From a phage, in sequence record PZ027503.1: a stretch of 64,000 nucleotides of DNA; one strand, 5' to 3'. This document shows, piece after piece, positions 20,342 through 34,107 of this stretch. The translations under genes were made by a program, and so were the position numbers. The notes beneath the pieces are model-generated. The model was not told the origin of the DNA, made no database searches, and saw nothing but the letters and a program-made list of their open reading frames with translations. Each line of letters opens with the position of its first letter. Within the stretch, counting starts at the first letter, position 1.

Positions 20342-20680
20342 GATAATCTCCTCTCATTCTTAGCCATCTTTCATGGCAATCATCAATCACCAACATCATA
20401 CGATCAATCTTAGGGAATTACAATCGAATTATCATAGGGGATTCCTATCAATTATCCCATATATACCGATTATTTTTGACACCCCACTCTTGTATAAAAA
20501 GTAACCCAAAATATCTACGGGGAGAGATTATTTCGGGACACCCTGTTTCATGGCAATCATGGCAAGAATATCTAATAGAATCAATATGATATGGCAAAAA
20601 TCATGGCGCATACGTAAGAAGTGCTTAACGCGAACTTTCGGGCCGTCAGGTCCACGCAGCGACAATTCCCAAATATCATG

Positions 20681-20703
20681 CGAATGAGAATAATTATCAT
20701 TCG
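20681..20703. promoter_or_regulatory. operator-like palindrome CGAATGA-N9-TCATTCG
   Basis: inverted repeat seen in sequence; related motifs at 20863, 33553, 33625. Confidence 0.4.
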
Positions 20704-21117
20704 TATTCAATGACTTATGCAAGGCTCATGCCAACATAGCGACAAGGTGGGCCACTTGATTATAAATCACACAAACACTTATTTATCAATAGGTTGGCAA
20801 CTTCATCATATGACGGAACAATGTCAACTAATCCCGCTCATAACAGACAGACTATTATTTATATGAGAATGATTATTATTTAAACGTTTATTAACATAAA
20901 ACCAGAATAAATCAAGAATTTTCTGATTTTATTTACGTTTAAGAGAAGATGCTCAACATCCTACCGGATCGCCGTTGGCAATCCTGCGGATATTTACGCC
21001 CCCATGATTAAGGTTTATCTCTTTTCTTAGTGCTCAACATTCCCGCCCGTGGCGGTAACATTTCGCCCCCAAAATTATTGACTTTTATTCTATTATGTGC
21101 ATAGTGTGCAATGTATC

Positions 21118-21136
21118 GGAATGATGATAATCATCC
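21118..21136. promoter_or_regulatory. Fur-box-like palindrome (AATGATGATAATCATC)
   Basis: close match to TGATAATCATT core of enterobacterial Fur boxes. Confidence 0.35.
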
Positions 21137-21928
21137 TCCCATTGCCCCCAATAATTATTGCCATGCTAATGATCTCATATTGTAATTATTACAATGATTA
21201 TTGTTATTGCGCTAATGTTATGATCTTGGTAATTACATATAATGCTAATAATAAGCCAGCGCAATGAGTGTAAGCGTAATTACGCTTGCAATTATTGCAA
21301 GCTACGCAATAACAAGAAATAACCGTCACCGATGGTTATGATTGTTGGGGTGTAGTTGGCTTATTATTAGCTCGCTATGTGTCCGGCATAGCGTGCTAAT
21401 GATGATCCTGGGAATGATTCGTTTTGTAATGATTTCATTCAGTCACTATTATGGCAATAGTTATTATTTTAATGGTTTCGTTTGTTATTGTTCGTTAGTT
21501 GGTTGTTTTGTCGTGTTATCGTTATTTTGCTTAGTATTCATCATGGTTTGATTGTTTGTCGTTATCAATCATCTTGCTATTATTCCTTTGATTATGATTA
21601 GTTTGCTTATTGTTTTATGTTGTTTGTTGGTTAGTTGTTGCGAACTATTATCAACATTATAATTATGCGCTTATATTGCATAGATAATCATGGGTAGATG
21701 ATAATGGTTATCATTGCACTAGAAAGGAGGTAGAAGGGTGTTTTTGATGGTTTGTTGTTGGTTGTTGATCGATTTTAACCGCTATAAATGGCTCTCTAAC
21801 AGCCTGTTACCCTGGGAGGTATGGTTATTCGTTTAATGGTTGATTAGCTCGATACCGCGATTTATTCAATTTTGTTCTGTGTCGGTTTTTCATAGGCGAA
21901 AGCTATCAACATTGTTCGGGCAAAAAGA

Positions 21929-21949
21929 AAGGGCGCTTGGTGCGCCCTT
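21929..21949 (-). terminator. terminator at distal end of island
   Basis: AAGGGCGCTTGGTGCGCCCTT hairpin flanked by T-runs. Confidence 0.5.
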
Positions 21950-21962
21950 GTTTTGTTGTCAA

Positions 21963-22382
21963 TTATAACGCTTCATAGATTGAGTAGATCCGGTTTGCCA
22001 GGTCATTACGAAAGCGGAATTTTTCATCACGTTTGATCATCAGATCCTTAAAACCGCATTCTTTCAGTGCTTCATTAACTTTACTGCGGCATACTTTCAT
22101 ATTGTCCTGCGCGTCACCAATAAACTTGTTACTATGATGCATTGCTTTGATCTCTTCTTCCAGGACCAGGGCAACTACACGGATCGGATCAAGCTGATAC
22201 GCGGTAACATCCATGCGGCATTGTAAACGGCTTTTAACGTCTGCCACCGGATATACTGCAACCTCTTCCCCGTCAACGTTCACAATAACCAATTTACCAT
22301 CGATTTCGAAGCCTTTAGCGGCGCTACCGTGACAAAAAGCGTTGTCGAAGGAGTAAGCTGGATTATTTGATTTAATGTTCAT
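21963..22382 (-). CDS. hypothetical protein (139 aa)
   Basis: ORF track; promoter TTGACA inside hairpin at 22440-22470. Confidence 0.6.
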   Translation of the reverse strand: MNIKSNNPAYSFDNAFCHGSAAKGFEIDGKLVIVNVDGEEVAVYPVADVKSRLQCRMDVTAYQLDPIRVVALVLEEEIKAMHHSNKFIGDAQDNMKVCRSKVNEALKECGFKDLMIKRDEKFRFRNDLANRIYSIYEAL

Positions 22383-22492
22383 GGTGTTGTCCTTTGTTTC
22401 GTTTCGTTGTTTGCTGCCAGTGAGTTAAATATAATATAACGCCGATCCCCTGTCAATAGGGGATAGCGCATTATTTACATTTCTTTACGTTA

Positions 22493-22513
22493 AAGGGCGC
22501 TTAGTGCGCCCCT
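22493..22513 (-). terminator. stem-loop, weak terminator
   Basis: AAGGGCGCTTAGTGCGCCCCTT hairpin after stop at 22523. Confidence 0.4.
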
Positions 22514-22522
22514 TGTACAATC

Positions 22523-22891
22523 TTACTTTGTGCGGTTGTGAACGTTATCGCGTTCAACCATCAGGGCAAGGCGGATCAGTTGATCAGTTGTATCGCGTAA
22601 ATTGTCGGGCCATGTTTTACTGTTCCAGCTATCCATGTTTGATTGTATATAGGTTTCAATGGCTTGATCCATATTATCAAACAAGTTTTCCTCCAGGCTC
22701 TCGGCTGTTTCACACTGGAAAGCATTAGCGACACTATTAATCAATAAGCAAGCCAGTAAATCAGCATTACGCCAATTTTTACGGATAGTTTCATCTGTCA
22801 GATAACCAACGAGATTAACCTTTGCGCCAGTGGTTGACGTTGCGATCACTTCTTGTGCTTTTTCAAGTGCTTTAATTGCTGATTTGCTCAT
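22523..22891 (-). CDS. hypothetical protein (122 aa)
   Basis: ORF track frame; start at internal ATG with AGAGGAAAA RBS downstream of cassette. Confidence 0.55.
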   Translation of the reverse strand: MSKSAIKALEKAQEVIATSTTGAKVNLVGYLTDETIRKNWRNADLLACLLINSVANAFQCETAESLEENLFDNMDQAIETYIQSNMDSWNSKTWPDNLRDTTDQLIRLALMVERDNVHNRTK

Positions 22892-22906
22892 TTTATTTTC
22901 CTCTTT

Positions 22907-22969
22907 GTGGGCTTGCTGTATTGCTCGCCCTACGTGATAAATAATAATGTAAGCGTGATCCGGTGTCAA
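22907..22969 (-). promoter_or_regulatory. promoter plus degenerate 5' stem-loop cassette
   Basis: minus-strand TTGACA-N17-TATTAT then CCCTACGTGATA block. Confidence 0.45.
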
Positions 22970-23144
22970 TAGGTAGCATTGTAAAGATTTGATAGTTTAT
23001 TCCTTTGATGTTTTGTTGTTTGATAGATGTTAGCTATCAATATATGGCGGGGTCGTCCGGTGATTATCTTCCCCTGCTCCCAGGTGCCGCCCGTTCAATA
23101 AGTATAACAAAAAACAGGACAAAAACAAGCCCTGTTTATTTATC

Positions 23145-23264
23145 TTAAAACCAGTTGCCAACCGTTTCCAATAGGTCACTGACTACCAGGACAACATTGA
23201 TCAGCACATATTTAATCAGGAAGGGGATTAGCGCCAGCGCCGCTACTATGATCCCCATTGTCAT
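23145..23264 (-). CDS. membrane micro-protein (39 aa)
   Basis: hand-translated MTMGIIVAALALIPFLIKYVLINVVLVV...; GAGAAAGG RBS. Confidence 0.35.
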   Translation of the reverse strand: MTMGIIVAALALIPFLIKYVLINVVLVVSDLLETVGNWF

Positions 23265-23275
23265 GATTACCTTTC

Positions 23276-23566
23276 TCATTGTTGGCGGTTTACGTAAGCT
23301 TTACCGTTTACGGTCATCTGTATGGCTTCAAGGTCTGGATCTTCCTTAAGGTCGCGTGCAAGCTCACCGCAGCGGATACCCTCGAATCCGTAGTATTCTG
23401 TTTCCCCGTCCTTAAAAGTTTTAGCGGCAAGGCATAGGCGATAATTAACGCCGATCCGGTTTACCGCGTTGATATCGGTTAACGCGATGGATTCAGGCAA
23501 ATCATTAGCCATTACAGGCGCGTTAATACCAACAACCAGGGCAACTACTGCGATCATCTTTTTCAT
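23276..23566 (-). CDS. secreted protein with signal peptide (96 aa)
   Basis: ORF track; MKKMIAVVALVVGINAPVMA; hairpin 23597-23612 upstream. Confidence 0.6.
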   Translation of the reverse strand: MKKMIAVVALVVGINAPVMANDLPESIALTDINAVNRIGVNYRLCLAAKTFKDGETEYYGFEGIRCGELARDLKEDPDLEAIQMTVNGKAYVNRQQ

Positions 23567-23621
23567 GCTTTCTAGCCTCTTCCTATTGCGTTTAATGGGG
23601 CGTTACCGCCCCGCTTATGGT

Positions 23622-23858
23622 TTATTGATTGATGTTATAATGAAAATTATTTTCTTCAATAGCTTTTAAAATAAAAGCCGTGATCGCTTTCGTGTCTACT
23701 TGTTCGAACGTATCGGAATAGCACCAATAATGATCATCCCCTACTTTCGGCGGGTAAACCTGGACAAGGAGATCGCCACCTGGTTGATCTATAAGCTCAA
23801 CATGTAAGCCGGATGATTCAGCGGTTTTAACGGCGTTTAATACTGTTGCAATACTCAT
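23622..23858 (-). CDS. hypothetical protein (78 aa)
   Basis: ORF track; hairpin 23879-23894 upstream of RBS. Confidence 0.55.
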   Translation of the reverse strand: MSIATVLNAVKTAESSGLHVELIDQPGGDLLVQVYPPKVGDDHYWCYSDTFEQVDTKAITAFILKAIEENNFHYNINQ

Positions 23859-23902
23859 AATCTTTTCCTTTCTGATGTGGGGCGTTGCCGCCCCTTTGTT
23901 GA

Positions 23903-24202
23903 TTAGATCGCTGTTTCCAGTAGTTCGGCTAACGTCTTACCGCCTGATAGTTGGTCTAACGTTTGCTCTTCTGGCAAGAAATTAGCTGATATTAATCCGA
24001 CTTGATTCCCTTTGTGCCAATTGGCTTGACGGATGATTCCATCCTTTAAAGATTTTACCGCCATTGTGCAACCGTCGCCAAATGATTCATTTTTATGATC
24101 CATTACTTCATAAGCGCCCAGCTTGCTGCTGTTAGGCACCATCAACGCGAATACATCACCAACAACCAGTTTTTCTACGGTAACAATAGCGATAGTTTCC
24201 AT
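23903..24202 (-). CDS. hypothetical protein (99 aa)
   Basis: ORF track. Confidence 0.55.
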   Translation of the reverse strand: METIAIVTVEKLVVGDVFALMVPNSSKLGAYEVMDHKNESFGDGCTMAVKSLKDGIIRQANWHKGNQVGLISANFLPEEQTLDQLSGGKTLAELLETAI

Positions 24203-24219
24203 TTTACTTTCCTCATTAT

Positions 24220-24278
24220 CGGCGGCACCATTGCCGCCCTACGCATTAAATATAAGTTATCTAAGAGATTAGATCAAG
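24220..24278 (-). promoter_or_regulatory. promoter plus 5' stem-loop cassette
   Basis: hairpin GGCGGCACCATTGCCGCC 24221-24238; minus-strand TTGATC-N17-TATATT. Confidence 0.55.
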
Positions 24279-24280
24279 GA

Positions 24281-24472
24281 TTATTTTGTAAAGATTACAG
24301 CTTCATCAAAATTTTCAACATAGTAAGCAAGCTCCTCATTTGCTGCAACCATTCCTAAAAGTTGGCTATAAGATAAACCTTTGATCCCTTCCTCGTTGTT
24401 TAATGCTTCGATGATTTCATCAACGGGCGCAAAAAACATGTTATTCGATTCCAGGTAGGAGATGGTTTTCAT
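24281..24472 (-). CDS. hypothetical protein (63 aa)
   Basis: ORF track. Confidence 0.5.
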   Translation of the reverse strand: MKTISYLESNNMFFAPVDEIIEALNNEEGIKGLSYSQLLGMVAANEELAYYVENFDEAVIFTK

Positions 24473-24492
24473 AATGTTTACCTTTTTCGGGG

Positions 24493-24549
24493 AGCGGCAC
24501 CATTGCCGCCCTACGTGGTAAATATTAGCACACTGGCGATCTGTGTCAA
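24493..24549 (-). promoter_or_regulatory. promoter plus 5' stem-loop cassette
   Basis: hairpin GCGGCACCATTGCCGC 24494-24509; TTGACA-N16-TAATAT on minus strand. Confidence 0.6.
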
Positions 24550-24555
24550 TACTTT

Positions 24556-24942
24556 TTATTCAATATAAATCAAATTATCTTCACCAATGTAAGCCGACAC
24601 GTTCGGCATAAACTTAGCTGCATTGGTTAGGCGGTTCGCCGTGTTAGTGGTGTATATTTCAGGGCGATCCCAAAAGCCTACGCCGTGACTGTTACGGGTA
24701 AAATGTAAATCATTCCCGATCTGGTTGGCTGTTGCGCCGTCGCTCATTGCCTCAGAGATAGCGGCAAGATTAGCATTAATAAAGGCTGTTACATCCTGGG
24801 CGATCCGTTGATCCGCACTAGGAGAAAAATCATAATCGTCTAAGTTATCAATAAAATTACCTTCATAATCCCTTGCTGATTCAGCAAAAATAAAGGCTTC
24901 TTTATAGCCGTTGATGATTTCAATAATGATTTCTGTTTTCAT
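24556..24942 (-). CDS. hypothetical protein (128 aa)
   Basis: ORF track. Confidence 0.55.
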   Translation of the reverse strand: MKTEIIIEIINGYKEAFIFAESARDYEGNFIDNLDDYDFSPSADQRIAQDVTAFINANLAAISEAMSDGATANQIGNDLHFTRNSHGVGFWDRPEIYTTNTANRLTNAAKFMPNVSAYIGEDNLIYIE

Positions 24943-25154
24943 GCTGTACGCTCGACAATAATAATAGTTTGCGGGATCTCGTTTTCTACTACTAACAAGG
25001 CTTTTTTCTGTGTGATAGATATTTTAACACGTTGTAAAGTAGCGGTAAAATCTTTCATTTCATTATGCGCGGATTTAGTACAATGCCAGATCTCAGGTTT
25101 ACCAACTTGCAAGCCGCGTAAAAATTCCGTTTTACCTGTCTTATTCGTGATCAT
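24939..25154 (-). CDS. hypothetical protein (71 aa)
   Basis: ORF track frame; start at ATG 25154 with AAGGTG RBS. Confidence 0.5.
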   Translation of the reverse strand: MITNKTGKTEFLRGLQVGKPEIWHCTKSAHNEMKDFTATLQRVKISITQKKALLVVENEIPQTIIIVERTA

Positions 25155-25164
25155 TTGTTTCACC

Positions 25165-25269
25165 TTAACCGATACCGTGGGAAGATAGGATCATATTAGC
25201 CATAGTTGCAACTACTCCAACCGATAACGCCAGGCCAACCACTGCAACCGTGAAAATTTTCTCTAACAT
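25165..25269 (-). CDS. membrane micro-protein (34 aa)
   Basis: hand-translated MLEKIFTVAVVGLALSVGVVATMANMILSSHGIG; follows cassette. Confidence 0.35.
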   Translation of the reverse strand: MLEKIFTVAVVGLALSVGVVATMANMILSSHGIG

Positions 25270-25286
25270 GATTCTACCCTCATTAA

Positions 25287-25349
25287 TGGGCGTTGCACCA
25301 TTGCCCCGCCCTACGTAATACACTTTACCAGATAACAAACCATTGTCAA
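25287..25349 (-). promoter_or_regulatory. promoter plus 5' stem-loop cassette (variant)
   Basis: hairpin 25288-25311; TTGACA at 25343-25349 (minus). Confidence 0.5.
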
Positions 25350-25407
25350 GGTTTATTTACTACATCTTTTAAGCTGTATTTTTAAAATACAGCTTTCAGG
25401 CTGTCAA

Positions 25408-25578
25408 TTACTCTTCATCGTCGCCGTTATAGTATTCAATGCCGTTTTCATCGGTTACGGTGATGTTAACGCCACCGATAGCAACACGATCACGGGCAAA
25501 CGTCATAGCTTCGTTTAAATCTTCAGACCAAAAAATATTGTGACCTTTGCGCGATACATAAAACATAGTTGGGATCAT
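25408..25578 (-). CDS. hypothetical protein (56 aa)
   Basis: ORF track frame; start at internal ATG after cassette and AGAAGAGAAA RBS. Confidence 0.5.
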   Translation of the reverse strand: MIPTMFYVSRKGHNIFWSEDLNEAMTFARDRVAIGGVNITVTDENGIEYYNGDDEE

Positions 25579-25600
25579 GATTTGTTTCTCTTCTGTTGTG

Positions 25601-25662
25601 AGCGGTGGACCATTCCGCCGCTCTATGTAATAAACTTTACTACGTTGTTTGCCTACTGTCAA
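25601..25662 (-). promoter_or_regulatory. promoter plus 5' stem-loop cassette
   Basis: hairpin GCGGTGGACCATTCCGCCGC; TTGACA 25657-25662 (minus). Confidence 0.55.
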
Positions 25663-25663
25663 A

Positions 25664-25948
25664 TTATTTTTTAATGTTTTGCCCTACAAAATTGATCACT
25701 TCCTTAAGCTGTCTCTCTGTCATGATCGTACCTGGTAACTCTTCTTTAATTTCTTCCGGTAAATAAATATTACCGCGCCAGGTTAACAAACAACCGTTTT
25801 GATCTTCGCAGATAGAATAAGAAAACATCCACTCGCAATCATTCTCAAGCTCCCAAAAACACAAAAAGTCTTCTTTCCCTAAGTTTTCAACGGTTAAACA
25901 TAATCCGCGACGTGCTGCATAATTAGTTAGGCTTTTTGTGATTTTCAT
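25664..25948 (-). CDS. hypothetical protein (94 aa)
   Basis: ORF track frame; start at internal ATG downstream of hairpin. Confidence 0.55.
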   Translation of the reverse strand: MKITKSLTNYAARRGLCLTVENLGKEDFLCFWELENDCEWMFSYSICEDQNGCLLTWRGNIYLPEEIKEELPGTIMTERQLKEVINFVGQNIKK

Positions 25949-25970
25949 GATTTTTCTCTCTTCTGTTGTG

Positions 25971-26027
25971 AGCGGCACCATTGCCGCCCTACAAGATACA
26001 TATTATCAGACTACGCGGACTTGTCAA
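25971..26027 (-). promoter_or_regulatory. promoter plus 5' stem-loop cassette
   Basis: hairpin GCGGCACCATTGCCGC 25972-25987; TTGACA 26021-26027 (minus). Confidence 0.6.
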
Positions 26028-26028
26028 A

Positions 26029-26139
26029 CTATTTTTTCTTTTTCTTTGCTTCCAACCGTCTAAGGTTACGGCTTGACTTATTGCGCAAGGCGCTTAGATC
26101 GTCGTACCCTTTCCATGCTTGCATATCTTTCGGATTCAT
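26029..26139 (-). CDS. small basic protein (36 aa)
   Basis: ORF track frame; start at internal ATG with GGGGGATAAC RBS; K-rich C-terminus. Confidence 0.35.
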   Translation of the reverse strand: MNPKDMQAWKGYDDLSALRNKSSRNLRRLEAKKKKK

Positions 26140-26149
26140 GTTATCCCCC

Positions 26150-26428
26150 TTAACGATTATAAACATTATGGATGGCTTCAAAGGCAAGATGACCATAAGC
26201 CGCCAAATCGGGATTGATCCAAGCGTTATCCAACATCGTTTCAAGGACTGTGGAATCATCGTATAAAGCATCATAGAAATCTGCACGGATGATCGTTTCA
26301 ATGTCGTCCGGTGTTAGTTTGTCGTTCAACTTGCACACTGTTTCAACGTCAACACCAATTTTCCAATTTTGTAAATTAGTGGTTAACATTGTTTTCATTT
26401 CTTCGGTTGTTAATTTAACGATGGTCAT
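26150..26428 (-). CDS. hypothetical protein (92 aa)
   Basis: ORF track; cassette upstream. Confidence 0.55.
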   Translation of the reverse strand: MTIVKLTTEEMKTMLTTNLQNWKIGVDVETVCKLNDKLTPDDIETIIRADFYDALYDDSTVLETMLDNAWINPDLAAYGHLAFEAIHNVYNR

Positions 26429-26451
26429 GATTTTTTCTCTCTTCTGTTAGG

Positions 26452-26507
26452 CGGGGCGCTTGTCGCCCCTATGTGATACATCTTATCAGGTTGATTCAGC
26501 TTGTCAA
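26452..26507 (-). promoter_or_regulatory. promoter plus 5' stem-loop cassette
   Basis: hairpin GGGGCGCTTGTCGCCCC; TTGACA-N16-TAAGAT (minus). Confidence 0.6.
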
Positions 26508-26508
26508 A

Positions 26509-26670
26509 CTATTTGTTAGCCGGATTATATGCCAGGACCGCGCCGCTTGCTTTCACGCTTTCCGCTTCATAGTTGCGCAGATCGTTTTCTGTAAGATTGA
26601 GCGCGATCACTTCCTCAATCTCAACACCAGCGGCAATGGCGATCTCTTTGATAATGTCTGCTGTTTTCAT
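26509..26670 (-). CDS. hypothetical protein (53 aa)
   Basis: ORF track frame; start at internal ATG (MKTADIIKEI). Confidence 0.5.
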   Translation of the reverse strand: MKTADIIKEIAIAAGVEIEEVIALNLTENDLRNYEAESVKASGAVLAYNPANK

Positions 26671-26680
26671 GGTATGTACC

Positions 26681-26800
26681 TTATAAGATGATTGATAAGA
26701 TAGTGACAACGAAAGCGATTATACTGATGGCAAATGTCATCTTTTTACCTTCGGATACTGCCGGATTTTCTACCGTGTATTCTACTGTGTACTTGCTCAT
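26681..26800 (-). CDS. membrane-anchored micro-protein (39 aa)
   Basis: hand-translated MSKYTVEYTVENPAVSEGKKMTFAISIIAFVVTILSIIL. Confidence 0.35.
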   Translation of the reverse strand: MSKYTVEYTVENPAVSEGKKMTFAISIIAFVVTILSIIL

Positions 26801-26822
26801 CGTGTAATCCTCTCGTTTGCTT

Positions 26823-26880
26823 TGGGAACTATTCCCGCCGCCCTATGAATTAAATATACACTATCTCAAAATGATTGCAA
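26823..26880 (-). promoter_or_regulatory. promoter plus 5' stem-loop cassette (short stem)
   Basis: hairpin GGGAACTATTCCC; TTGCAA at 26875-26880 (minus). Confidence 0.5.
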
Positions 26881-26898
26881 GCCTTTTTCTAAATTATT

Positions 26899-27183
26899 TT
26901 ATGCAGTAAACAAACCATCATTTACAACGGCGGCGATGATCTCCCGTGCCATTGATTCAGGGAAAGGGGCGCTATAGTCCTGGCTTGTCTCATCGGTATC
27001 GGTGATCCAATGATAAGCTAACGAGTAAAAGCCTTTACTAACTGTTTTCAGTGAGATGATGATCACTCGGTCAAGCTTATTGGTGAATGTTGCCGTTAAT
27101 GTGTCACCCTCCTGCGTCATGTTGGACAAGTAAGCGGGATCATTAATCAGGGAAAACATTAGCACGGTGTTAGCTTTACTCAT
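26899..27183 (-). CDS. hypothetical protein (94 aa)
   Basis: ORF track frame; start at internal ATG with GAGGATG RBS. Confidence 0.55.
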   Translation of the reverse strand: MSKANTVLMFSLINDPAYLSNMTQEGDTLTATFTNKLDRVIIISLKTVSKGFYSLAYHWITDTDETSQDYSAPFPESMAREIIAAVVNDGLFTA

Positions 27184-27203
27184 GATTGCATCCTCAAAGG
27201 GGG

Positions 27204-27260
27204 CGCGGCACCATTGCCGCCCTACACGATAACTATAACACAATATAAAACAGGATCAAC
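27204..27260 (-). promoter_or_regulatory. promoter plus 5' stem-loop cassette
   Basis: hairpin GCGGCACCATTGCCGC 27205-27220; TTGATC-N16-TATAGT (minus). Confidence 0.55.
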
Positions 27261-27462
27261 CTTTATTTTTCCACGGTGTCAGCTTGTTAATCATTGGTGA
27301 TAAATAGCGTTTACCAACGTAAAACAGCACGCCAACTGATGCAACGGCGGCGACCTCATGCATAGCCGACGGGAAACGGGTATCATAATAAGATCCAATA
27401 ATAGCAATAGCGGCAACGGCTGCAACGTCGATAATGATTTTTTCTTGTTTTGCGGTGATCAT
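27256..27462 (-). CDS. small membrane protein (68 aa)
   Basis: ORF track; hydrophobic. Confidence 0.5.
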   Translation of the reverse strand: MITAKQEKIIIDVAAVAAIAIIGSYYDTRFPSAMHEVAAVASVGVLFYVGKRYLSPMINKLTPWKNKG

Positions 27463-27481
27463 AATATTTACCTTTTTGTAT

Positions 27482-27541
27482 GGTGGGGAACTATTCCCCG
27501 CCTGATGTAATACAGTTTAACAGGTCCGGTTATGGTGTCAA
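27482..27541 (-). promoter_or_regulatory. promoter plus 5' stem-loop cassette
   Basis: hairpin GGTGGGGAACTATTCCCCGCC; TTGACA 27536-27541 (minus). Confidence 0.55.
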
Positions 27542-27547
27542 CCACTT

Positions 27548-27733
27548 TTAAAGATATTTTATGTTAATGATGTTTTCAGGTTTTACCTTGTTATGATGTG
27601 CATCAACATAGATCAAACCATCGTCAGAAAAGCCCAGGATCACGCCCTGCGCAATAAAACCGTATTCGTCACGGTAACGCACGGCTATTTTTAATGTTGC
27701 GCTGTAGGCTGTTTTAAGCTCGTTTAAAGTCAT
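27548..27733 (-). CDS. hypothetical protein (61 aa)
   Basis: ORF track; GAGGAT RBS. Confidence 0.5.
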   Translation of the reverse strand: MTLNELKTAYSATLKIAVRYRDEYGFIAQGVILGFSDDGLIYVDAHHNKVKPENIINIKYL

Positions 27734-27753
27734 TTTTGTTTATCCTCTACATG

Positions 27754-27774
27754 TAAAAAGAAAGGGCGCTTGGT
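27754..27774 (-). terminator. intra-island terminator
   Basis: AAGGGCGCTTGGTGCGCCCTT hairpin followed by CTTTTTAC on minus strand. Confidence 0.45.
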
Positions 27775-27788
27775 GCGCCCTTGTTATG

Positions 27789-27935
27789 TTAATCCTCTAA
27801 ATCCATCCAATTATATTTGTCACTCTTCCCGCGCTTTGTTTTATTGCGCTTGTCGCCTTTGCGGATCACTTCCTCGTTCCAGGCCTTGCGGATCTTGGAA
27901 GATTGAATTTTTTCTGCGCGATTAGATGTATTCAT
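27789..27935 (-). CDS. small basic protein (48 aa)
   Basis: hand-translated MNTSNRAEKIQSSKIRKAWNEEVIRKGDKRNKTKRGKSDKYNWMDLED; AGAGGAAACA RBS. Confidence 0.4.
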   Translation of the reverse strand: MNTSNRAEKIQSSKIRKAWNEEVIRKGDKRNKTKRGKSDKYNWMDLED

Positions 27936-27954
27936 TTTGTTTCCTCTTTATATG

Positions 27955-28008
27955 AGCGGCACTATTGCCGCTATATTGTTAATTTAAACTGTTTTGTAAA
28001 ATTGTCAA
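27955..28008 (-). promoter_or_regulatory. promoter plus 5' stem-loop cassette
   Basis: hairpin GCGGCACTATTGCCGC 27956-27971; TTGACA 28002-28008 (minus). Confidence 0.55.
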
Positions 28009-28014
28009 GGTTTA

Positions 28015-28368
28015 TCATTCATAAGAGCAAGCAAGGATCACGCCTGCAATATAAAGCCAATAATTTTCCCTTTCTCGTTGGATTTTATCATCGCTGCTAT
28101 TCTCTTTAATGTATCCCCAGGATGTTAACAACCGATCTACTTCCCAATACTCGAAAGCTATATTAATATTTGACGGTAAACCTTGTAACCATGATGCTAT
28201 TGCTCTGATAATGTTATGATCGTAACGTTTTTGATTATCGGTGTACCAATATTCAGATTTAAAACAGCGCATCAATTCCGCGATCTTCTCTTTCTCTTCT
28301 GTGATGCCATACTCGCTATAATCAATTGAGGCCAGAATATAAAGTTTAATTGCATTTTGTGCTTTCAT
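28015..28368 (-). CDS. hypothetical protein (117 aa)
   Basis: ORF track. Confidence 0.55.
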   Translation of the reverse strand: MKAQNAIKLYILASIDYSEYGITEEKEKIAELMRCFKSEYWYTDNQKRYDHNIIRAIASWLQGLPSNINIAFEYWEVDRLLTSWGYIKENSSDDKIQRERENYWLYIAGVILACSYE

Positions 28369-28387
28369 GGTGTCTCTCTTCTGTTGT

Positions 28388-28445
28388 TGGCGGCACCATT
28401 GCCGCCCTATGTGTTACATCTTACCGGATTTTTAAAACTTGTCAA
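28388..28445 (-). promoter_or_regulatory. promoter plus 5' stem-loop cassette
   Basis: hairpin GGCGGCACCATTGCCGCC 28389-28406; TTGACA 28439-28445 (minus). Confidence 0.6.
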
Positions 28446-28667
28446 TCATTTTTCTACTATCATTTGATACCCTGTTTCCAGGTTAGTAAACACCGTGATC
28501 CCGTCCTGGCGTTCACTCATTAGCATACAAGGCGCTAACATCCTTTCTACTGCCTTGCACTCATTGTAAACGGCGGTTATGTCTCCTGCGGCCTTGTCTT
28601 CTGTGGTGAATGTATCGTTTACGTAAACCTGACCAGCGACAACGGCGACAATAGCGAAAGTGATCAT
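28446..28667 (-). CDS. hypothetical protein (73 aa)
   Basis: ORF track; MITFA N-terminus shared with next small ORF. Confidence 0.5.
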   Translation of the reverse strand: MITFAIVAVVAGQVYVNDTFTTEDKAAGDITAVYNECKAVERMLAPCMLMSERQDGITVFTNLETGYQMIVEK

Positions 28668-28700
28668 GGTGTTTCCTTGTTAGTAGTGGTTTCTCTTCTC

Positions 28701-28726
28701 TATAGCGCCCATTGTAAGGCGCTATA
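28701..28726 (-). promoter_or_regulatory. variant 5' stem-loop (TATAGCGCC/GGCGCTATA)
   Basis: inverted repeat immediately upstream of RBS of 28446-28667. Confidence 0.4.
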
Positions 28727-28734
28727 ACGAAAAG

Positions 28735-28908
28735 TCAACGATTATTTTTAAGGCTTAAAGTACCTAACTTGTCAGCATGACGCAGACCAGGGAAGATCCA
28801 TTTGCCTGATTCATCTTTTACAGGTGCTTTAAACGTAGCGCCCAGGTTGGCGGCGTTAATTTTACGGGCAACGTTGCGAGCGGCTTCACGGGTAGCGAAA
28901 GTGATCAT
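28735..28908 (-). CDS. small protein (57 aa)
   Basis: hand-translated MITFATREAARNVARKINAANLGATFKAPVKDESGKWIFPGL... Confidence 0.4.
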   Translation of the reverse strand: MITFATREAARNVARKINAANLGATFKAPVKDESGKWIFPGLRHADKLGTLSLKNNR

Positions 28909-28932
28909 GGTGTTTTCCTCTTCTCTTTGTTA

Positions 28933-28994
28933 GGCGGTGGACCATTCCGCCGCCTTGATGTAATACAGTTTACTTTATTTTTGCAGTATTGCAA
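28933..28994 (-). promoter_or_regulatory. promoter plus 5' stem-loop cassette
   Basis: hairpin GGCGGTGGACCATTCCGCCGCC; TTGCAA 28989-28994 (minus). Confidence 0.45.
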
Positions 28995-29000
28995 GCGGTT

Positions 29001-29213
29001 TTATGAAATAATCGTCAAAGTAAAATTGTAATCACCTGATTGATACAATACTTTATCACCGAACGTTCCAACACGTTTAACATTGCAATATATACCCATA
29101 ACACTTTTTACATCTTTGATATTCTTCACGCCTGTAATATCTTTATTAAAATGATCGTGATCAGAAAATAAAACTTGACTTGCATTTTTTAACAGTGTGC
29201 GGATATTAGCCAT
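29001..29213 (-). CDS. hypothetical protein (70 aa)
   Basis: ORF track. Confidence 0.5.
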   Translation of the reverse strand: MANIRTLLKNASQVLFSDHDHFNKDITGVKNIKDVKSVMGIYCNVKRVGTFGDKVLYQSGDYNFTLTIIS

Positions 29214-29237
29214 CGTAATAATCTCTCTTCTGTTGTG

Positions 29238-29294
29238 AGCGGCACCATTGCCGCCCTACGTAATATAGTTTACTCTTTTTCTTTCCCGTGTCAA
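29238..29294 (-). promoter_or_regulatory. promoter plus 5' stem-loop cassette
   Basis: hairpin GCGGCACCATTGCCGC 29239-29254; TTGACA 29289-29294 (minus). Confidence 0.6.
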
Positions 29295-29303
29295 CAATCT
29301 TTT

Positions 29304-29531
29304 TCAGATTAATTCATCCAGGCATAACAGGCGATCAACGTTGAGATCGGTTAGGCTGATGGTTGGCACCTGGTAGGATTCGATGTACTCGACGCTTGCA
29401 TATTCCCCAAAATTAGCAATAGCCCACTTATTCAAGATCTCACATACATCATTAATCTTTTTGTTTGTTACGACTGCAATAACCTGGGAAGTGCCAACGG
29501 TGCCGGATACGCGAACAATATTGATAGCCAT
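29304..29531 (-). CDS. hypothetical protein (75 aa)
   Basis: ORF track. Confidence 0.5.
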   Translation of the reverse strand: MAINIVRVSGTVGTSQVIAVVTNKKINDVCEILNKWAIANFGEYASVEYIESYQVPTISLTDLNVDRLLCLDELI

Positions 29532-29551
29532 AATCTTTAATCTCTCTGTTT

Positions 29552-29612
29552 TGGCGGGAAACCACTTCCCGCCCTATGTGATACATCTTACACTAATTTT
29601 AAACGTTGTCAA
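29552..29612 (-). promoter_or_regulatory. promoter plus 5' stem-loop cassette
   Basis: hairpin GGCGGGAAACCACTTCCCGCC; TTGACA-N-TAAGAT (minus). Confidence 0.6.
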
Positions 29613-29621
29613 CTGTTTTTA

Positions 29622-29861
29622 TTACATTCCAACCATCGCGGCACGGATCGCAGTAGTGCTATATTTGAAACCGTCTGGCGTTTTATCTTGTCCAGTTTGT
29701 TCCAGAAAAAGCATCATATCCCGCGCCGCATCATTACGATTAGCATTAGCGTTAATAAAATCTTGGGCCAACCGGTATAACGATTCATCGTTATTAATCC
29801 AAAGGCTTACATTCCAATGAGTTTTGTTTTTGTGACCGTTGTACATTTTAGATTTAGCCAT
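29622..29861 (-). CDS. hypothetical protein (79 aa)
   Basis: ORF track. Confidence 0.5.
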   Translation of the reverse strand: MAKSKMYNGHKNKTHWNVSLWINNDESLYRLAQDFINANANRNDAARDMMLFLEQTGQDKTPDGFKYSTTAIRAAMVGM

Positions 29862-29884
29862 GATTTTTCTCTCTTTTTCAGTGA

Positions 29885-29944
29885 GGCGGGAAGTGTTCCC
29901 GCTCTCTATGTAATACAGTTTACTCTTTTTATTCGTGCTGTCAA
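29885..29944 (-). promoter_or_regulatory. promoter plus 5' stem-loop cassette
   Basis: hairpin GCGGGAAGTGTTCCCGC 29886-29902; TTGACA 29939-29944 (minus). Confidence 0.55.
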
Positions 29945-29950
29945 TGCTTT

Positions 29951-30316
29951 TTATAAATCTTTTTTACGTTTTACATCGCTCGCATGACTGTATACAGTGA
30001 TCCCATTGTCACGGCAAAAACGGGAAAGGTAGGCATAATTTGAAAACTCTTTACCTTCCAGGTTGATAACCTTGCTAAACTCTTCTAGGGCAACGGTATC
30101 AAAATGATCACCATAGCCATATTGAAACGGAACGTTAACCACCTCGATCAGTTTACCGCCGATCTCAACGTCAACCATTAAAGAGAAATATGTGTTACCG
30201 TAGGACCGTTGAAACCAGCGACGGGCGCTAATGTGCACCGCTTCAATGCTGGATAATTCAATTTTAGCCGTGTTAGCCAGGGTAGCATAAGCGGAAACAT
30301 TGATATTAATAGCCAT
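29951..30316 (-). CDS. hypothetical protein (121 aa)
   Basis: ORF track. Confidence 0.55.
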   Translation of the reverse strand: MAININVSAYATLANTAKIELSSIEAVHISARRWFQRSYGNTYFSLMVDVEIGGKLIEVVNVPFQYGYGDHFDTVALEEFSKVINLEGKEFSNYAYLSRFCRDNGITVYSHASDVKRKKDL

Positions 30317-30341
30317 GATGATAATCTCTCTTTTTGGTTAG

Positions 30342-30394
30342 TGGGAAGTATTCCCGATAAAAGTTATTATGCTTATACTATCACTCATTGTCAA
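30342..30394 (-). promoter_or_regulatory. promoter plus 5' stem-loop cassette (short stem)
   Basis: hairpin GGGAAGTATTCCC; TTGACA 30389-30394 (minus). Confidence 0.5.
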
Positions 30395-30413
30395 TAGTAT
30401 AAGACTAAAACTT

Positions 30414-30593
30414 TTAACGATAATCGTTATAGGCTTTATTGACCTGGCGAATGTAACATTCGAAAGCAAGATCAATGTATTCGTATTCACGCACATAATC
30501 ACCATAGGTCACTACATACATTTTTAAAGTTTCCTCATAAGCCAGGAGGATCGAATCTAAACCTATAATCTCAGTTTTTGCAATGATAGCCAT
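30414..30593 (-). CDS. small protein (59 aa)
   Basis: hand-translated MAIIAKTEIIGLDSILLAYEETLKMYVVTYGDYVREYEYIDLAFECYIRQVNKAYNDYR. Confidence 0.4.
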   Translation of the reverse strand: MAIIAKTEIIGLDSILLAYEETLKMYVVTYGDYVREYEYIDLAFECYIRQVNKAYNDYR

Positions 30594-30612
30594 GATGTTA
30601 ACCTTTTATTGT

Positions 30613-30670
30613 TGGCGGCACCATTGCCGCCCTACGTGATAAACTATACCAGAAGTTTAAACAGTGTCAA
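30613..30670 (-). promoter_or_regulatory. promoter plus 5' stem-loop cassette
   Basis: hairpin GGCGGCACCATTGCCGCC 30614-30631; TTGACA 30665-30670 (minus). Confidence 0.6.
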
Positions 30671-30676
30671 CCGTTT

Positions 30677-31039
30677 TTATTCGTAAATTTTACCGCTTTC
30701 GGCCCATACCATAACGCGGCGCATACTATCCCAAGTGTTTTGATCCAGGTTTAAGCCGTGCAACTCTTCGGTACTTCCCAGACCAGGTACCGCTTTGTTG
30801 TAAGTCGCATATAAGCGCCCTTGATACTCATACGCCAGAGTAAGATCCGTTTGAATCATCTTTTTAAGCATAGCATTAAGCATCATATTAGCGGCATGTT
30901 GATCACGTTTTAGCGGTAACATATCAATAAGGGCGCGATAAGCTGAAACATGGATATCAACCGTTTCACGTGGTAAATTTTTCATATCATCGCGGAAAGA
31001 TACCAGATTAAATATGATAGTATTGATTTGCTTGCTCAT
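30677..31039 (-). CDS. hypothetical protein (120 aa)
   Basis: ORF track. Confidence 0.55.
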   Translation of the reverse strand: MSKQINTIIFNLVSFRDDMKNLPRETVDIHVSAYRALIDMLPLKRDQHAANMMLNAMLKKMIQTDLTLAYEYQGRLYATYNKAVPGLGSTEELHGLNLDQNTWDSMRRVMVWAESGKIYE

Positions 31040-31059
31040 TGTGTTACCCTTTTTTGTTT

Positions 31060-31121
31060 TGGCGGGGAAGTATTCCGCCGCCCTATGTGATACATCTTAT
31101 CAGATTAAAAAACGTTGTCAA
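31060..31121 (-). promoter_or_regulatory. promoter plus 5' stem-loop cassette
   Basis: hairpin GGCGGGGAAGTATTCCGCCGCC; TTGACA-N-TAAGAT (minus). Confidence 0.6.
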
Positions 31122-31129
31122 GAATATTT

Positions 31130-31225
31130 TTAGAAAATAATATCCGCTACTACAACCCAAAATGGAACGGCTAGAATGATAGCGTTAATCGTTCCAACCG
31201 TCAAGCTATTTTCTTTATTAATCAT
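31130..31225 (-). CDS. membrane micro-protein (31 aa)
   Basis: hand-translated MINKENSLTVGTINAIILAVPFWVVVADIIF; sits between two cassettes. Confidence 0.3.
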   Translation of the reverse strand: MINKENSLTVGTINAIILAVPFWVVVADIIF

Positions 31226-31253
31226 TGTAAGCCTCTTGCATAATTTCACTATG

Positions 31254-31311
31254 AGCGGCACCATTGCCGCCCTACGTGGTAAATATTATGCCAGTGGCGG
31301 CGATATGTCAA
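31254..31311 (-). promoter_or_regulatory. promoter plus 5' stem-loop cassette
   Basis: hairpin GCGGCACCATTGCCGC 31255-31270; TTGACA 31306-31311 (minus). Confidence 0.6.
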
Positions 31312-31865
31312 AGACTATTTTCAAAGTTTTCTAGTGCGATCCTTTTTTCTTCCTCTGTCGGCTGATAATCAGGAAAAGCATCAACACACAACAACGGCGG
31401 GATCTCTTCGTACTCTTCCTCTTCCGTTGTCTCCTCGTCTTCCTCCTGGGCTATGGCTGCAATTTTGGCTAATTTTCTTTCGGCTTGAATCAATTTACCA
31501 TCAAGTACGTTTTTTGCCATGTTGTAAGCGGTCCAGGTGATGCGCTTACTTTCCAACGCTTCATCAAGCGCCGCTATCTTGCTGGGGTATTCATCCAGGA
31601 CACGAAAAGCCGGATCAATTTTGTACAAAGGATTATCTTTCGCGCCGTCGCTTGCATCTTCCGCACTGGATAAATCAGCGTTACCATTTGCCAGCCAGCC
31701 AGGGCGCACATAACGCGCTTTTACGTTGCCGTTACTACGTGCTAATCTGTTACCTATTTGCTCACCGCTATATCCCGTGGATTCATCGATAAGATGATCG
31801 GGAATGATGCGCGGATCATCTGCTTCATGTTTTACCCAAGACTGGATCACATATTCGCGGCCCAT
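31308..31865 (-). CDS. hypothetical protein with acidic C-terminus (185 aa)
   Basis: ORF track frame; start at ATG 31865 with AAGGTGG RBS. Confidence 0.6.
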   Translation of the reverse strand: MGREYVIQSWVKHEADDPRIIPDHLIDESTGYSGEQIGNRLARSNGNVKARYVRPGWLANGNADLSSAEDASDGAKDNPLYKIDPAFRVLDEYPSKIAALDEALESKRITWTAYNMAKNVLDGKLIQAERKLAKIAAIAQEEDEETTEEEEYEEIPPLLCVDAFPDYQPTEEEKRIALENFENSL

Positions 31866-31866
31866 A

Positions 31867-32124
31867 TTAACCACCTTTTTTCAACAATTGGCATACTTTA
31901 AAAAGACTTGCTGAATCCTTGCAAGGGTAGAAAGATGTACGATAATCACGTACGCCAACCTTGCGGATCTCGATGTTCTCGCATGTTGTTTGATCAAAGA
32001 TATTTATTTCATCACGCCCCCTTATATAAACATAGTGGGGATGTATTAACGCATATTTTGCTAATCTGTAAAAAGCGTTATCTTTGAACGCGATCACGTG
32101 ACCTTTTAATTTGATGTAAAACAT
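31867..32124 (-). CDS. hypothetical protein (85 aa)
   Basis: ORF track. Confidence 0.5.
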   Translation of the reverse strand: MFYIKLKGHVIAFKDNAFYRLAKYALIHPHYVYIRGRDEINIFDQTTCENIEIRKVGVRDYRTSFYPCKDSASLFKVCQLLKKGG

Positions 32125-32141
32125 TCTACCACCTTACAAAT

Positions 32142-32197
32142 AGCGGGAACTATTCCCGCTTTATGTAACATATTAACAAATTATTCGTTAATGTCAA
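32142..32197 (-). promoter_or_regulatory. promoter plus 5' stem-loop cassette
   Basis: hairpin AGCGGGAACTATTCCCGCT; TTGACA 32192-32197 (minus). Confidence 0.55.
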
Positions 32198-32200
32198 GCC

Positions 32201-32473
32201 TTAAAGCAAAAACGCTACATCTTGCGCTTTTAGTGTAGTATCAACCATTTTCGGGCTTTTATAATCAACAAAGCGCGCGGTTTTTTCAATAGCGAAACCG
32301 AGATAATCTTGCTTGTTGAAATTACACTCTTTCTTAAATGTTTCCCGTGCAATGGCAATCGCTGCGTCCAGGGATAAACGCCCGTCAATATTGATATTAG
32401 CGAAAGATCCGCCACCGCTCATAGGTTTACCAGTTGTGCCAGCTACGATCATTGTTGCGCTATATGATGCCAT
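32201..32473 (-). CDS. hypothetical protein (90 aa)
   Basis: ORF track. Confidence 0.55.
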   Translation of the reverse strand: MASYSATMIVAGTTGKPMSGGGSFANINIDGRLSLDAAIAIARETFKKECNFNKQDYLGFAIEKTARFVDYKSPKMVDTTLKAQDVAFLL

Positions 32474-32497
32474 GATGATAATCTCTCTTCTGTTACG

Positions 32498-32557
32498 AGC
32501 GGGAAACCACTTCCCGCCCTATGTGATACATCTTATCAGGTTGTTGTTTGTTGTCAA
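32498..32557 (-). promoter_or_regulatory. promoter plus 5' stem-loop cassette
   Basis: hairpin GCGGGAAACCACTTCCCGC; TTGACA-N-TAAGAT (minus). Confidence 0.6.
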
Positions 32558-32563
32558 TACTTT

Positions 32564-32761
32564 TTATTCTATCCCTGCAATTTGATTAACGCGCTTGCAT
32601 TTTGTAGCGTGCTGGTCTTCTGTAATGACTCCCATTTCTAACAGGGAATCAATGAAAGATAAAACCGTTTCATGATCATCCTGGGGATGACTGAACTCAG
32701 TAAAACCGTTTACCACGACGCTGATTTGTCCTGCTTTCGCCACAATGTGCAATGTTGCCAT
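32564..32761 (-). CDS. hypothetical protein (65 aa), first gene of island
   Basis: ORF track; GGAG RBS. Confidence 0.5.
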   Translation of the reverse strand: MATLHIVAKAGQISVVVNGFTEFSHPQDDHETVLSFIDSLLEMGVITEDQHATKCKRVNQIAGIE

Positions 32762-33036
32762 GATTTTAACTCCAGGTGATGAATGATGTTTTTTGTTGGT
32801 GGACGGTGGATTATGGAGATCCTCACCTTTGCCCGTCCTGCATTGCGCCCCTCCTGTTGTTTATTGTCGTTGTGCCGCGCCCCCCTCGACAAGATGAATA
32901 CTACGCCACCAGGTGAGGAACGTCAACCACTTTTTCAATCTTTTTTATTTTCTTTTTTGCTTGCTGTATATGAAGGAAACGGCTATCATCTTTCTACCGC
33001 GCCAACCAGGGCGCACAACAAAGAAAGGGCGATACC

Positions 33037-33303
33037 ATGACAAATACTACATTACACCTTATGCACTCATTGGGCTGGCAAGGCGGCACGGTGCACCAGG
33101 TAGCAAGCGCAACGGGCTTAAAGGTTGAAACAGTTCTCAACCTGGGCGATCATAAGGTGGAAGAGATAGATCATTTTGATTCGTTCGCTGATGGTTATTT
33201 ATGGGCTTGCAGTGGCGGCGGGGAAAGCAAGATACCGCCAGGGGAGCGGGGTAATATGTATTTTTGGTTAGGTGTCCTATCCTGGCAAGAAGATAAAAAA
33301 TAA
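33037..33303 (+). CDS. hypothetical protein (88 aa)
   Basis: ORF track; isolated rightward ORF in hub, weak RBS. Confidence 0.35.
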   Translation: MTNTTLHLMHSLGWQGGTVHQVASATGLKVETVLNLGDHKVEEIDHFDSFADGYLWACSGGGESKIPPGERGNMYFWLGVLSWQEDKK

Positions 33304-33552
33304 TCTTGACAAGCCCAGGGATCGGGCTTATACTGTTTTACATACAGAAGAGGAAGCGCCACCCCACGGCGTAAAGGCGGGGCTAACATACCAGGGCGCT
33401 GGTTGGAAGGTTGATCGCCGGTAGGCTGGGCGCTATATATTTGTAAAGAAATGTAAAGATAAAATAATCGCTTGCTTTCCTGGCTGGATCTGTTATTCTT
33501 ATTACATGGCGAGGGGACACGGGAGCGCGAGACAAACACCACCCCTGCGCGT

Positions 33553-33670
33553 CATTCTCTAGATGAGAATGATTATCATTCACCTTATTAAATAAGAATC
33601 AATCTCATTTATAAACTTAAATGCGAATCATTATCATTTGCATTTCCATATGAGAACTCTTCTCATTCTC
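33553..33670. promoter_or_regulatory. cluster of operator-like palindromes (TCATTCTC/GAGAATGA, GAATGATTATCATTC, GAATCATTATCATT)
   Basis: overlapping inverted repeats seen in sequence; same motif family as 20681 and 20863. Confidence 0.45.
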
Positions 33671-33686
33671 ACCTGCATAAATTTTT

Positions 33687-34055: not shown

Positions 34056-34107
34056 TTCTATGCTACAAAGTGACACCTTTGTTCTAAAAATGAAAAAAGT
34101 TAAAATA

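Follow-up and report, generated by a model that had tools for sequence, protein, structure and literature searches.

Predicted Fur-box arrays in two non-coding regions of a Phapecoctavirus genome and in other virulent phages

The DNA considered here, the 64-kb window of record PZ027503.1, is a segment of a Phapecoctavirus (phAPEC8-like, Stephanstirmvirinae) with 96-98% identity to phages such as ECO340P1 and Schickermooser. Its run of small minus-strand genes is broken by two long non-coding regions, which we call hub 1 (about 20342-21962) and hub 2 (about 32762-34107), and both carry palindromes that resemble operators of the ferric uptake regulator (Fur) of the host. These hub boxes are the only such strong sites in the genome of about 151 kb, the other 90.5 kb of which were read from ECO340P1. 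To judge from their sequence, they are probably bound with high affinity by host Fur (consensus aAATGA[G/T]AATnATT[C/A]TCATTt). The explanation that fits best as a whole, though we hold it tentatively, is that host Fur sites are arrayed in two cis-acting non-coding regions and would there gate transcription.

Fur-type sites in the phage genome

A Fur matrix was obtained by unseeded palindromic expectation maximization on 12 Fur-controlled intergenic regions of E. coli K-12 (fepA-fes, fepD-entS, fepB-entC, fhuA, fecI, fecA, cirA, fiu, tonB, exbB, ryhB and fur). The procedure yielded AATGATAATCATTATCATT, and the best site of each training region scores between 6.1 and 20.5 bits, with a median of 18.1. 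When the window was scanned with this matrix the top six sites all fell in the hubs, the five strongest at 18.7-20.3 bits, as against 15.2 bits for the best site outside them. In the remaining 90.5 kb of the genome, including its other AT-rich or non-coding parts, the maximum was 12.6 bits, and 53 kb of E. coli control DNA outside Fur promoters gave no site of 12 bits or more. A first-pass annotation of this DNA had noted the likeness to Fur boxes and proposed a whole-genome scan as a specificity control; in that scan the hub sites rank first, with scores above those expected of random AT-rich sequence and comparable to the median of the genuine operators, so that the likeness is borne out.

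A simpler search with the 7-1-7 consensus TGATAATNATTATCA, allowing up to two mismatches, found six sites in the 64 kb, five of them within the roughly 3 kb of the hubs, while the mean over 300 dinucleotide shuffles of the hubs is 0.07 sites and no shuffle contains two. The phage sites differ from this consensus at one or two positions and the E. coli operators at one to five; half-sites of the form TGAGAAT/ATTCTCA are present in the real fecI, ryhB, fhuA and exbB operators. The octamer GAGAATGA is modestly enriched (8 occurrences against 2.8 expected, a number reached in 2 of 100 shuffles), and the signal is carried by the full 19-mer rather than by this octamer.

All five palindromes listed in the first-pass annotation are present in the sequence where it had placed them, and four are strong sites. 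The fifth, at 21118-21136, was rejected as a Fur box: nothing within 21105-21140 scores above 7.2 bits, and the relative phiWec186 has lost the element by deletion. Three further sites had been overlooked (21697-21715, 33591-33609 and 33649-33667).

According to Chen et al. (2007; PMC2189734), Fur sites overlap at offsets of 3 or 6 bp, the 6-bp overlap being typical of Fur operators. Pairs offset by 6 bp occur in the window at 20683/20689 and 33620/33626, and 6 bp is the commonest spacing in the phage arrays considered below (73 times), a figure partly due to the internal periodicity of the motif.

Hub 1 and the genome end

In Schickermooser the same 329 bp, with 100% identity, stand at both ends of the record, and the copy at its start corresponds to window positions 20626-20953. 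Korf et al. (2019; PMC6563267) report a terminal repeat of 328 bp, and many phage records begin at about window position 20954. Taken together, these data place the physical genome end in hub 1. Since the terminus (20953/20954) and the repeat fall within it, the window must be a circularly joined or permuted version of a linear genome. Boxes A and B (Table 1) lie within about 100 bp of the repeat boundary, as an accessory host-factor site of a cos or pac region would; the site at 21697 stands in the 1-kb non-coding tail that adjoins the right-hand repeat copy.

Conservation of these sites can be followed in phiWec186, in which identity over the left part of hub 1 has fallen to about 61-68% and the boxes A, B and 21697 persist as islands, scoring 20.3, 17.0 and 20.1 bits. 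The 19-mer of box A is identical in phiWec186 and in the T5-like phage pork29, and the 21697 site is also identical in phiWec186. Boxes A and B together keep 33 of 38 positions, compared with 61% identity over the rest of the repeat region.

Some other elements of hub 1 were observed. The right part (21400-21960) is a T/G-rich non-coding tail by the right physical end, about 97% identical by eye to phiWec186, and its non-coding DNA is strongly constrained. Further palindromes occur at 21272-21287 (AAGCGTAATTACGCTT) and 21286-21300. A bidirectional intrinsic terminator at 21929-21949, AAGGGCGC-loop-GCGCCCTT, closes the last gene of the island, and Schickermooser has a terminator annotated at the equivalent place.

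Organization of hub 2

The order of elements in hub 2 was established from an alignment of eight phages belonging to two subfamilies: promoter P1, a GC-rich element, promoter P2, a conserved leader, the first Fur box with its 29-bp register, and AT-rich repeats. The column of box D, at about +57 to +75 from the start of P2, is fixed in all eight aligned phages. The four boxes of the window follow one another in an exact 29-bp tandem register (33564, 33593, 33622 and 33651). About 12.9 kb (8.6% of the genome) separate the array from the right physical end, and it stands in unique sequence outside the terminal repeat.

P2 itself scores under the threshold of a simple promoter scan. For the GC-rich element a fold of 16 pairs, two of them covarying, is predicted, and it has no match in Rfam; we consider it a candidate phage non-coding RNA. 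Rfam gave no match over the whole window at the gathering threshold, nor in hub 2 at E<=1, and a tRNA scan of the window was negative. The 72-nt AT-rich repeats, two copies of which stand 138 bp apart and similar ones of which occur in the Justusliebigvirus muut, could be an unwinding element or unusual promoters.

A lone plus-strand open reading frame (ORF) of 88 aa (33037-33303) lies amid the minus-strand genes and terminates immediately ahead of P1; several relatives have it annotated, and Pfam gives no match for it. Concerning the genes that flank the hubs, Pfam and PHROGs identify a NADAR-domain protein, an endonuclease-like protein (PHROG endonuclease families; Pfam CapR homology domain PF21817) and an AAA ATPase, the remainder being of unknown function.

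Table 1. Features of the two hubs (window positions) and the corresponding palindromes of phage T5 (AY587007 positions). Box names denote predicted sites; scores refer to the Fur matrix.
Feature	Position	Strand	Remarks
Hub 1	20342..21962		1.6 kb, non-coding; physical genome end inside; no ORF annotated in relatives
Direct terminal repeat equivalent	20626..20953		328/329 bp; Schickermooser ends; Korf et al. 2019
Fur box A, AATGAGAATAATTATCATT	20683..20701		20.3 bits; 57 bp inside one repeat edge
Fur box B, TATGAGAATGATTATTATT	20862..20880		18.7 bits; 73 bp inside the other repeat edge
Fur box, GATGATAATGGTTATCATT	21697..21715		20.1 bits; 1 mismatch to 7-1-7 consensus (match 21699-21713)
Hub 2	32762..34107		non-coding module kept across Stephanstirmvirinae and Vequintavirinae
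Promoter P1, TTGACA-17-TATACT	33306..33334	+	rightward; 11/12 consensus positions; conserved across genera
GC-rich element after P1	33342..33440	+	about 100 nt; nearly invariant in alignment
Promoter P2, TTGCTT-16-(TGt)TATTCT	33472..33499	+	extended -10; invariant columns cTTG, TGnTAnnnT
Half-site, TCATTCTC	33553..33560		precedes first full box; ATTC columns invariant
Fur box D, GATGAGAATGATTATCATT	33562..33580		19.5 bits; array unit 1
Degenerate box, AATAAGAATCAATCTCATT	33591..33609		13.5 bits; array unit 2
Fur box E, AATGCGAATCATTATCATT	33620..33638		19.8 bits; array unit 3
Box F, TATGAGAACTCTTCTCATT	33649..33667		15.6 bits; array unit 4
AT-rich 72-nt direct repeats with AAACTTTAAAT motifs	33680..33889		right of array
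T5 palindrome E	9473-9491		17.3 bits
T5 palindrome G	9577-9595		22.3 of possible 23.6 bits
T5 palindrome I	9612-9636		Fur-matrix match

Distribution in relatives and other viruses

The core of hub 2 matches 383 phage records. We compared the equivalent hub of Justusliebigvirus muut, a Klebsiella stephanstirmvirus, Vequintavirus inoa, a Cronobacter Seunavirus, a Serratia vequintavirus, a Pectobacterium Certrevirus and three IMG/VR contigs, and in each we found between one and six strong boxes, in many cases with a spacing of exactly 29 bp. Arrays of Fur boxes are thus present also in Justusliebigvirus, in four Vequintavirinae lineages and in T5-like phages, and the sites of relatives reach 22.3-23.6 bits. 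A search for IMG/VR relatives through a protein flanking hub 1 found none, and the NADAR protein of hub 2 led to only five loci; the distant IMG/VR relative L007 (36% identity in the flanking protein) has no site of 13 bits or more within its 8.3-kb locus.

The exact form AATGAGAATNATTATCATT is found in at least 120 IMG/VR contigs. Among the 120 matches listed, 74 have two or more sites of at least 15 bits within 400 bp, 36 have three or more, and one has 11; spacings peak at 6 bp and 29 bp. The eight densest of these arrays are all non-coding, on contigs whose GC content ranges from 21% to 53%, and when compared by BLAST with GenBank phages the densest arrays match solely through the boxes themselves. 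Five of the eight stand beside the gene of the large terminase subunit (TerL). More generally, a TerL-like gene lies within 3 kb in 30 of the 120 site-bearing loci, which is a lower bound given by a homology detector on short contigs, whose length biases it, with no random-intergenic control, and sites are upstream of TerL in 28 of 36 cases, again with no matched control. We regard the association with terminase as a lead. In several unrelated contigs (L151, L181, L191, L210, L223 and others) the terS/terL(-portal) operons are preceded, at 0.3-2 kb, by non-coding DNA with dense arrays of five to seven strong sites.

Some GenBank records are labelled as Campylobacter jejuni phages. Among them, MG065650 has about 95% identity to these coliphages in hub 1, and MG065647 has its hub 2 core in common with rV5-like phages at about 71% identity; the host labels of both, and of other 'Campylobacter phage' records, are probably wrong.

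The palindromes of phage T5

About 55 bp around box E match T5-like phages at 81-87% identity (BLAST, 55-59 bp), inside the left terminal repeat of the latter. The corresponding region of pork29 carries AATGAGAATGATTCTCATT, AATGCGAATCATTATCATT and AATGAGAATAATTATCATT, the last two being identical to boxes E and A. In T5 itself the matrix sites are the annotated palindromes E, G and I, which together occupy 9473-9636, with half-sites supplied by direct repeat C. This 'Repeat Region 3' is the candidate injection-stop (iss) region, with a calculated first-step-transfer shear point at 9618 (Davison, bioRxiv 10.1101/866236). Palindromes E, G and I straddle that point, just before the 7.9% nick at 9661-9668, in the left terminal repeat. 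Davison lists them with no binding protein and no mention of Fur, and our literature search found no published link of Fur boxes to virulent phages or to the T5 palindromes.

Weaker T5 sites were seen outside Repeat Region 3, at 6022-6040, where inverted repeat C begins (14.1 bits), and at 231-249 (16.7 bits). The latter, inside dmp and 231 bp from the left end, is the single site of the extreme left end, and a general rule that boxes mark every terminus was therefore discarded.

Host Fur as the candidate binding protein

In a reverse test, bacterial genomes were scanned for the exact phage-type palindrome AATGAGAATNATTCTCATT, with at least 120 matches. Among those listed, 114 of 120 are intergenic, and of the first 30 outward-facing genes 15 are related to iron or other metals or encode extracytoplasmic function (ECF) sigma factors, a proportion for which there is no matched control set. 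These 15 comprise Fur (2), TonB-dependent receptors (2), SBP_bac_6 proteins of the Fe(III) type (4), FTR1 (1), a FecB/FhuD-type protein (1), ZnuA/SitA-type proteins (2) and ECF sigma factors (3), which are presumably FecI-like.

A logo drawn from 40 distinct phage sites matches the Fur matrix at 18 of 19 positions, including the AAT/ATT flanks, the C/G centre and the flanking A/T. ArgR, DeoR, Cra and Zur of E. coli, which also recognize AT-rich palindromes, were set aside because their half-site spacing differs, rather than through a comparison of matrices. Among the five strongest sites of the window, A, B and D have TGAGAAT as the left arm and ATTATCA or ATTATTA as the right arm, so that the two arms could not pair fully in a hairpin. 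The constraint therefore acts on the duplex sequence and not on an RNA or a cruciform, and this asymmetry at the variable G/T position, which the matrix tolerates, led us to reject a hairpin or terminator.

A possible transcriptional gate and its alternatives

Concerning the main role of the arrays, we lean, with more reserve than for binding itself, towards a Fur-dependent gate or roadblock on transcription through the hubs, a reading favoured by the fixed promoter-leader-box arrangement of hub 2. In an iron-replete host, pre-existing Fe2+-Fur dimers would occupy the arrays when the DNA enters and so form the roadblock. At hub 2 this would halt the rightward transcripts of P1 and P2 before the AT-rich repeats and the convergent gene block, and would also block leftward read-through into the island; at the genome ends, the two boundaries of the repeat would be marked by Fur. 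The gate would open when iron is limiting or Fur is lost. Iron-dependent early expression, as envisaged in the first-pass annotation, is possible, but the placement of the boxes at leftward promoters, as the annotation had it, is not supported. The first box of hub 2 follows the rightward P2 and lies to the right of the leftward candidates (33288->33260 and 32926->32898), which are well to the left of the boxes; in hub 1, A and B lie in the terminal repeat with no convincing leftward promoter over them, and the leftward site most like a promoter (20556->20527) stands some 130 bp further inward.

Several points weigh against a Fur-dependent gate. The boxes of hub 2 begin at about +57 from P2 and do not overlap its -35 and -10 elements, as they would in classical Fur operators, and known Fur operators do not have a regular 29-bp spacing. 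In hub 1, box A overlaps just a weak plus-strand promoter-like site (9/12), and B and the 21697 site overlap none. The T5 GenBank record has no promoter annotated within about 1.9 kb of the arrays, the nearest being T5P5 (7476-7565), and this speaks against transcription control as the shared function. At matrix position 6 the phage sites have G at 0.60 and T at 0.40, whereas Fur operators have T at 0.66, so that another protein with a closely related specificity is conceivable. Repression in an iron-replete host offers no obvious gain to a virulent phage. Finally, the assignment to Fur is wholly in silico.

The most serious alternative, although we consider it unlikely, accepts that Fur binds but assigns the arrays to the biology of the genome ends: a stop of DNA entry as in T5, terminase cutting and packaging, or an end insulator, with the host protein acting as an architectural factor. 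It has to be taken seriously because of the symmetric placement of the sites in the repeat, the T5 boundary and the association with terminase. Boxes A and B stand within the 328-bp repeat at 57 and 73 bp from its respective edges, the T5 palindromes surround the shear point before the 7.9% nick, the hub 2 array is 8.6% of the genome away from the right end, and the TerL counts given above, including five of the eight densest arrays, point the same way. Moreover, first-step transfer of T5 halts without phage protein synthesis, so the stop must rely on pre-existing factors. On the other side, hub 2 lies away from the ends and outside the repeat, DnaA boxes such as those of the T5 iss region are missing from both hubs, and the TerL association is a lower bound from short contigs with no matched control. 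To our knowledge fur mutants of E. coli have not been reported as T5-resistant, in which case Fur could not be essential for the process. A wider form of this idea is that Fur-box arrays are a widespread, unrecognised class of phage cis-elements at terminal repeats and packaging-proximal non-coding DNA, that host Fur is the trans-factor for genome-end events including the T5 injection stop, and that hub 2 of Phapecoctavirus and rV5-like phages is iss-like; this we regard as rather doubtful.

It is improbable that the sites are operators of a phage-encoded or other non-Fur protein whose specificity resembles TGAGAAT-N-ATTCTCA. The preference for G at position 6 and C at position 14, which departs from the Fur matrix, would suit such a protein, the 29-bp register resembles iterons or operator arrays, and a regulator could hide among the hub-flanking genes, most of which have no known function. 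But a matrix made from host operators alone agrees with the sites at all positions except one, the exact palindrome faces iron-uptake genes in bacteria, and the sites are common to T5-like siphoviruses, two myovirus subfamilies and unrelated IMG/VR contigs of 21%-53% GC. What these carriers share is the Fur-type regulators of their hosts and not proteins of their own: tblastx against T5 4.5-12 kb gave no match, and no homologue of T5 A1, A2 or dmp was found. The phage repressor suggested in the first-pass annotation as an alternative to a host regulator finds no support, for the same reason and because the phage has no Fur homologue and the 11 hub-flanking ORFs, most of the small ones being of unknown function, show no regulator domain in Pfam and/or PHROGs.

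A Fur sponge, in which replicated arrays would titrate Fur and de-repress host iron uptake to the benefit of iron-dependent enzymes such as ribonucleotide reductase, seems very unlikely. In its favour, most host operators are weaker than these sites, which in relatives reach as much as 22.3-23.6 bits, the phage encodes the large subunit of ribonucleotide reductase, and multicopy Fur boxes do titrate Fur, as exploited in the Fur titration assay. A sponge does not need fixed positions, yet the boxes are fixed relative to P2 and to the repeat edges, and T5 degrades host DNA early, so that de-repression of host genes would be pointless there.

Chance AT-rich palindromes, or RNA or DNA hairpins with no protein partner, might be looked for in hubs that are AT-rich and repeat-rich, but this reading is effectively refuted by the shuffles (0.07 sites expected, 5 observed), by the matrix scan, by the lack of such sites in the other AT-rich or non-coding parts of the genome, and by the conservation in phiWec186, where the sequence itself and not only its pairing is kept, while asymmetric sites break the hairpin.

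Significance

Earlier descriptions of Fur boxes on phage DNA concern the iron-related cargo genes of temperate phages. In the present case, Fur-type arrays are the dominant conserved motif of the large non-coding regions in virulent enterobacterial phages of several families that have therapeutic use (phAPEC8-like, rV5-like and T5-like). If Fur binds them, infection would be tied to the iron status of the host, a point that matters in the gut, blood and urinary tract, where iron is limited. For T5, whose injection-stop region has lacked an explanation since the 1960s, there would be a host factor that can easily be tested, the calculated boundary lying inside a cluster of near-perfect Fur boxes, and the arrays would provide a simple annotation marker for terminal or control regions of unannotated phage genomes.

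Comparison with known systems

With the Fur operators of E. coli (GATAATGATAATCATTATC, or in 7-1-7 form TGATAATnATTATCA; fecI, ryhB, entC, fiu) the phage sites share the 19-bp palindrome, the flanks, the C/G centre and the 6-bp partners; they equal or exceed them in matrix score, and have TGAGAAT half-sites as in fecI and ryhB. They differ from them in being on a virulent phage, in non-coding DNA with no iron gene nearby, away from -35 and -10 elements, in a 29-bp array and with G at position 6. The Fur boxes of prophage cargo (sitABCD of lambdoid phages, stx1) are likewise host Fur sites on phage DNA, and the 'Fur box' of PMC6969025 is that of the lambdoid sit operon. There, the phages are temperate and a single operator stands on the promoter of an iron-related cargo gene, whereas the sites described here form arrays in virulent phages with no such cargo.

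In lambda, the host protein IHF is used in packaging through site I1 of cosB. Like A and B, the IHF site is a host-protein site tens of bp from a terminase cut, and elsewhere Fur-type arrays stand upstream of terS/terL; protein and motif are different in the two cases, and a packaging role of Fur would be hypothetical. A further comparison is with the T5 iss region. The T5 arrays are flanked by paired DnaA boxes (IRD'-spacer-IRC') and DRD repeats, which are absent in the hubs, where no DnaA box (TTWTNCACA) was found in either. The terminal repeat of T5 measures 10 kb, against 328 bp in the phAPEC8-like phage, and the T5 array stands at the first-step-transfer boundary in this long repeat together with the A1/A2 genes, while hub 2 is unique sequence with no A1/A2 homologue. 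What the T5 iss region and the hubs have in common is the same family of sites and a large untranslated repeat region near or in the terminal repeat, about 8% from the end.

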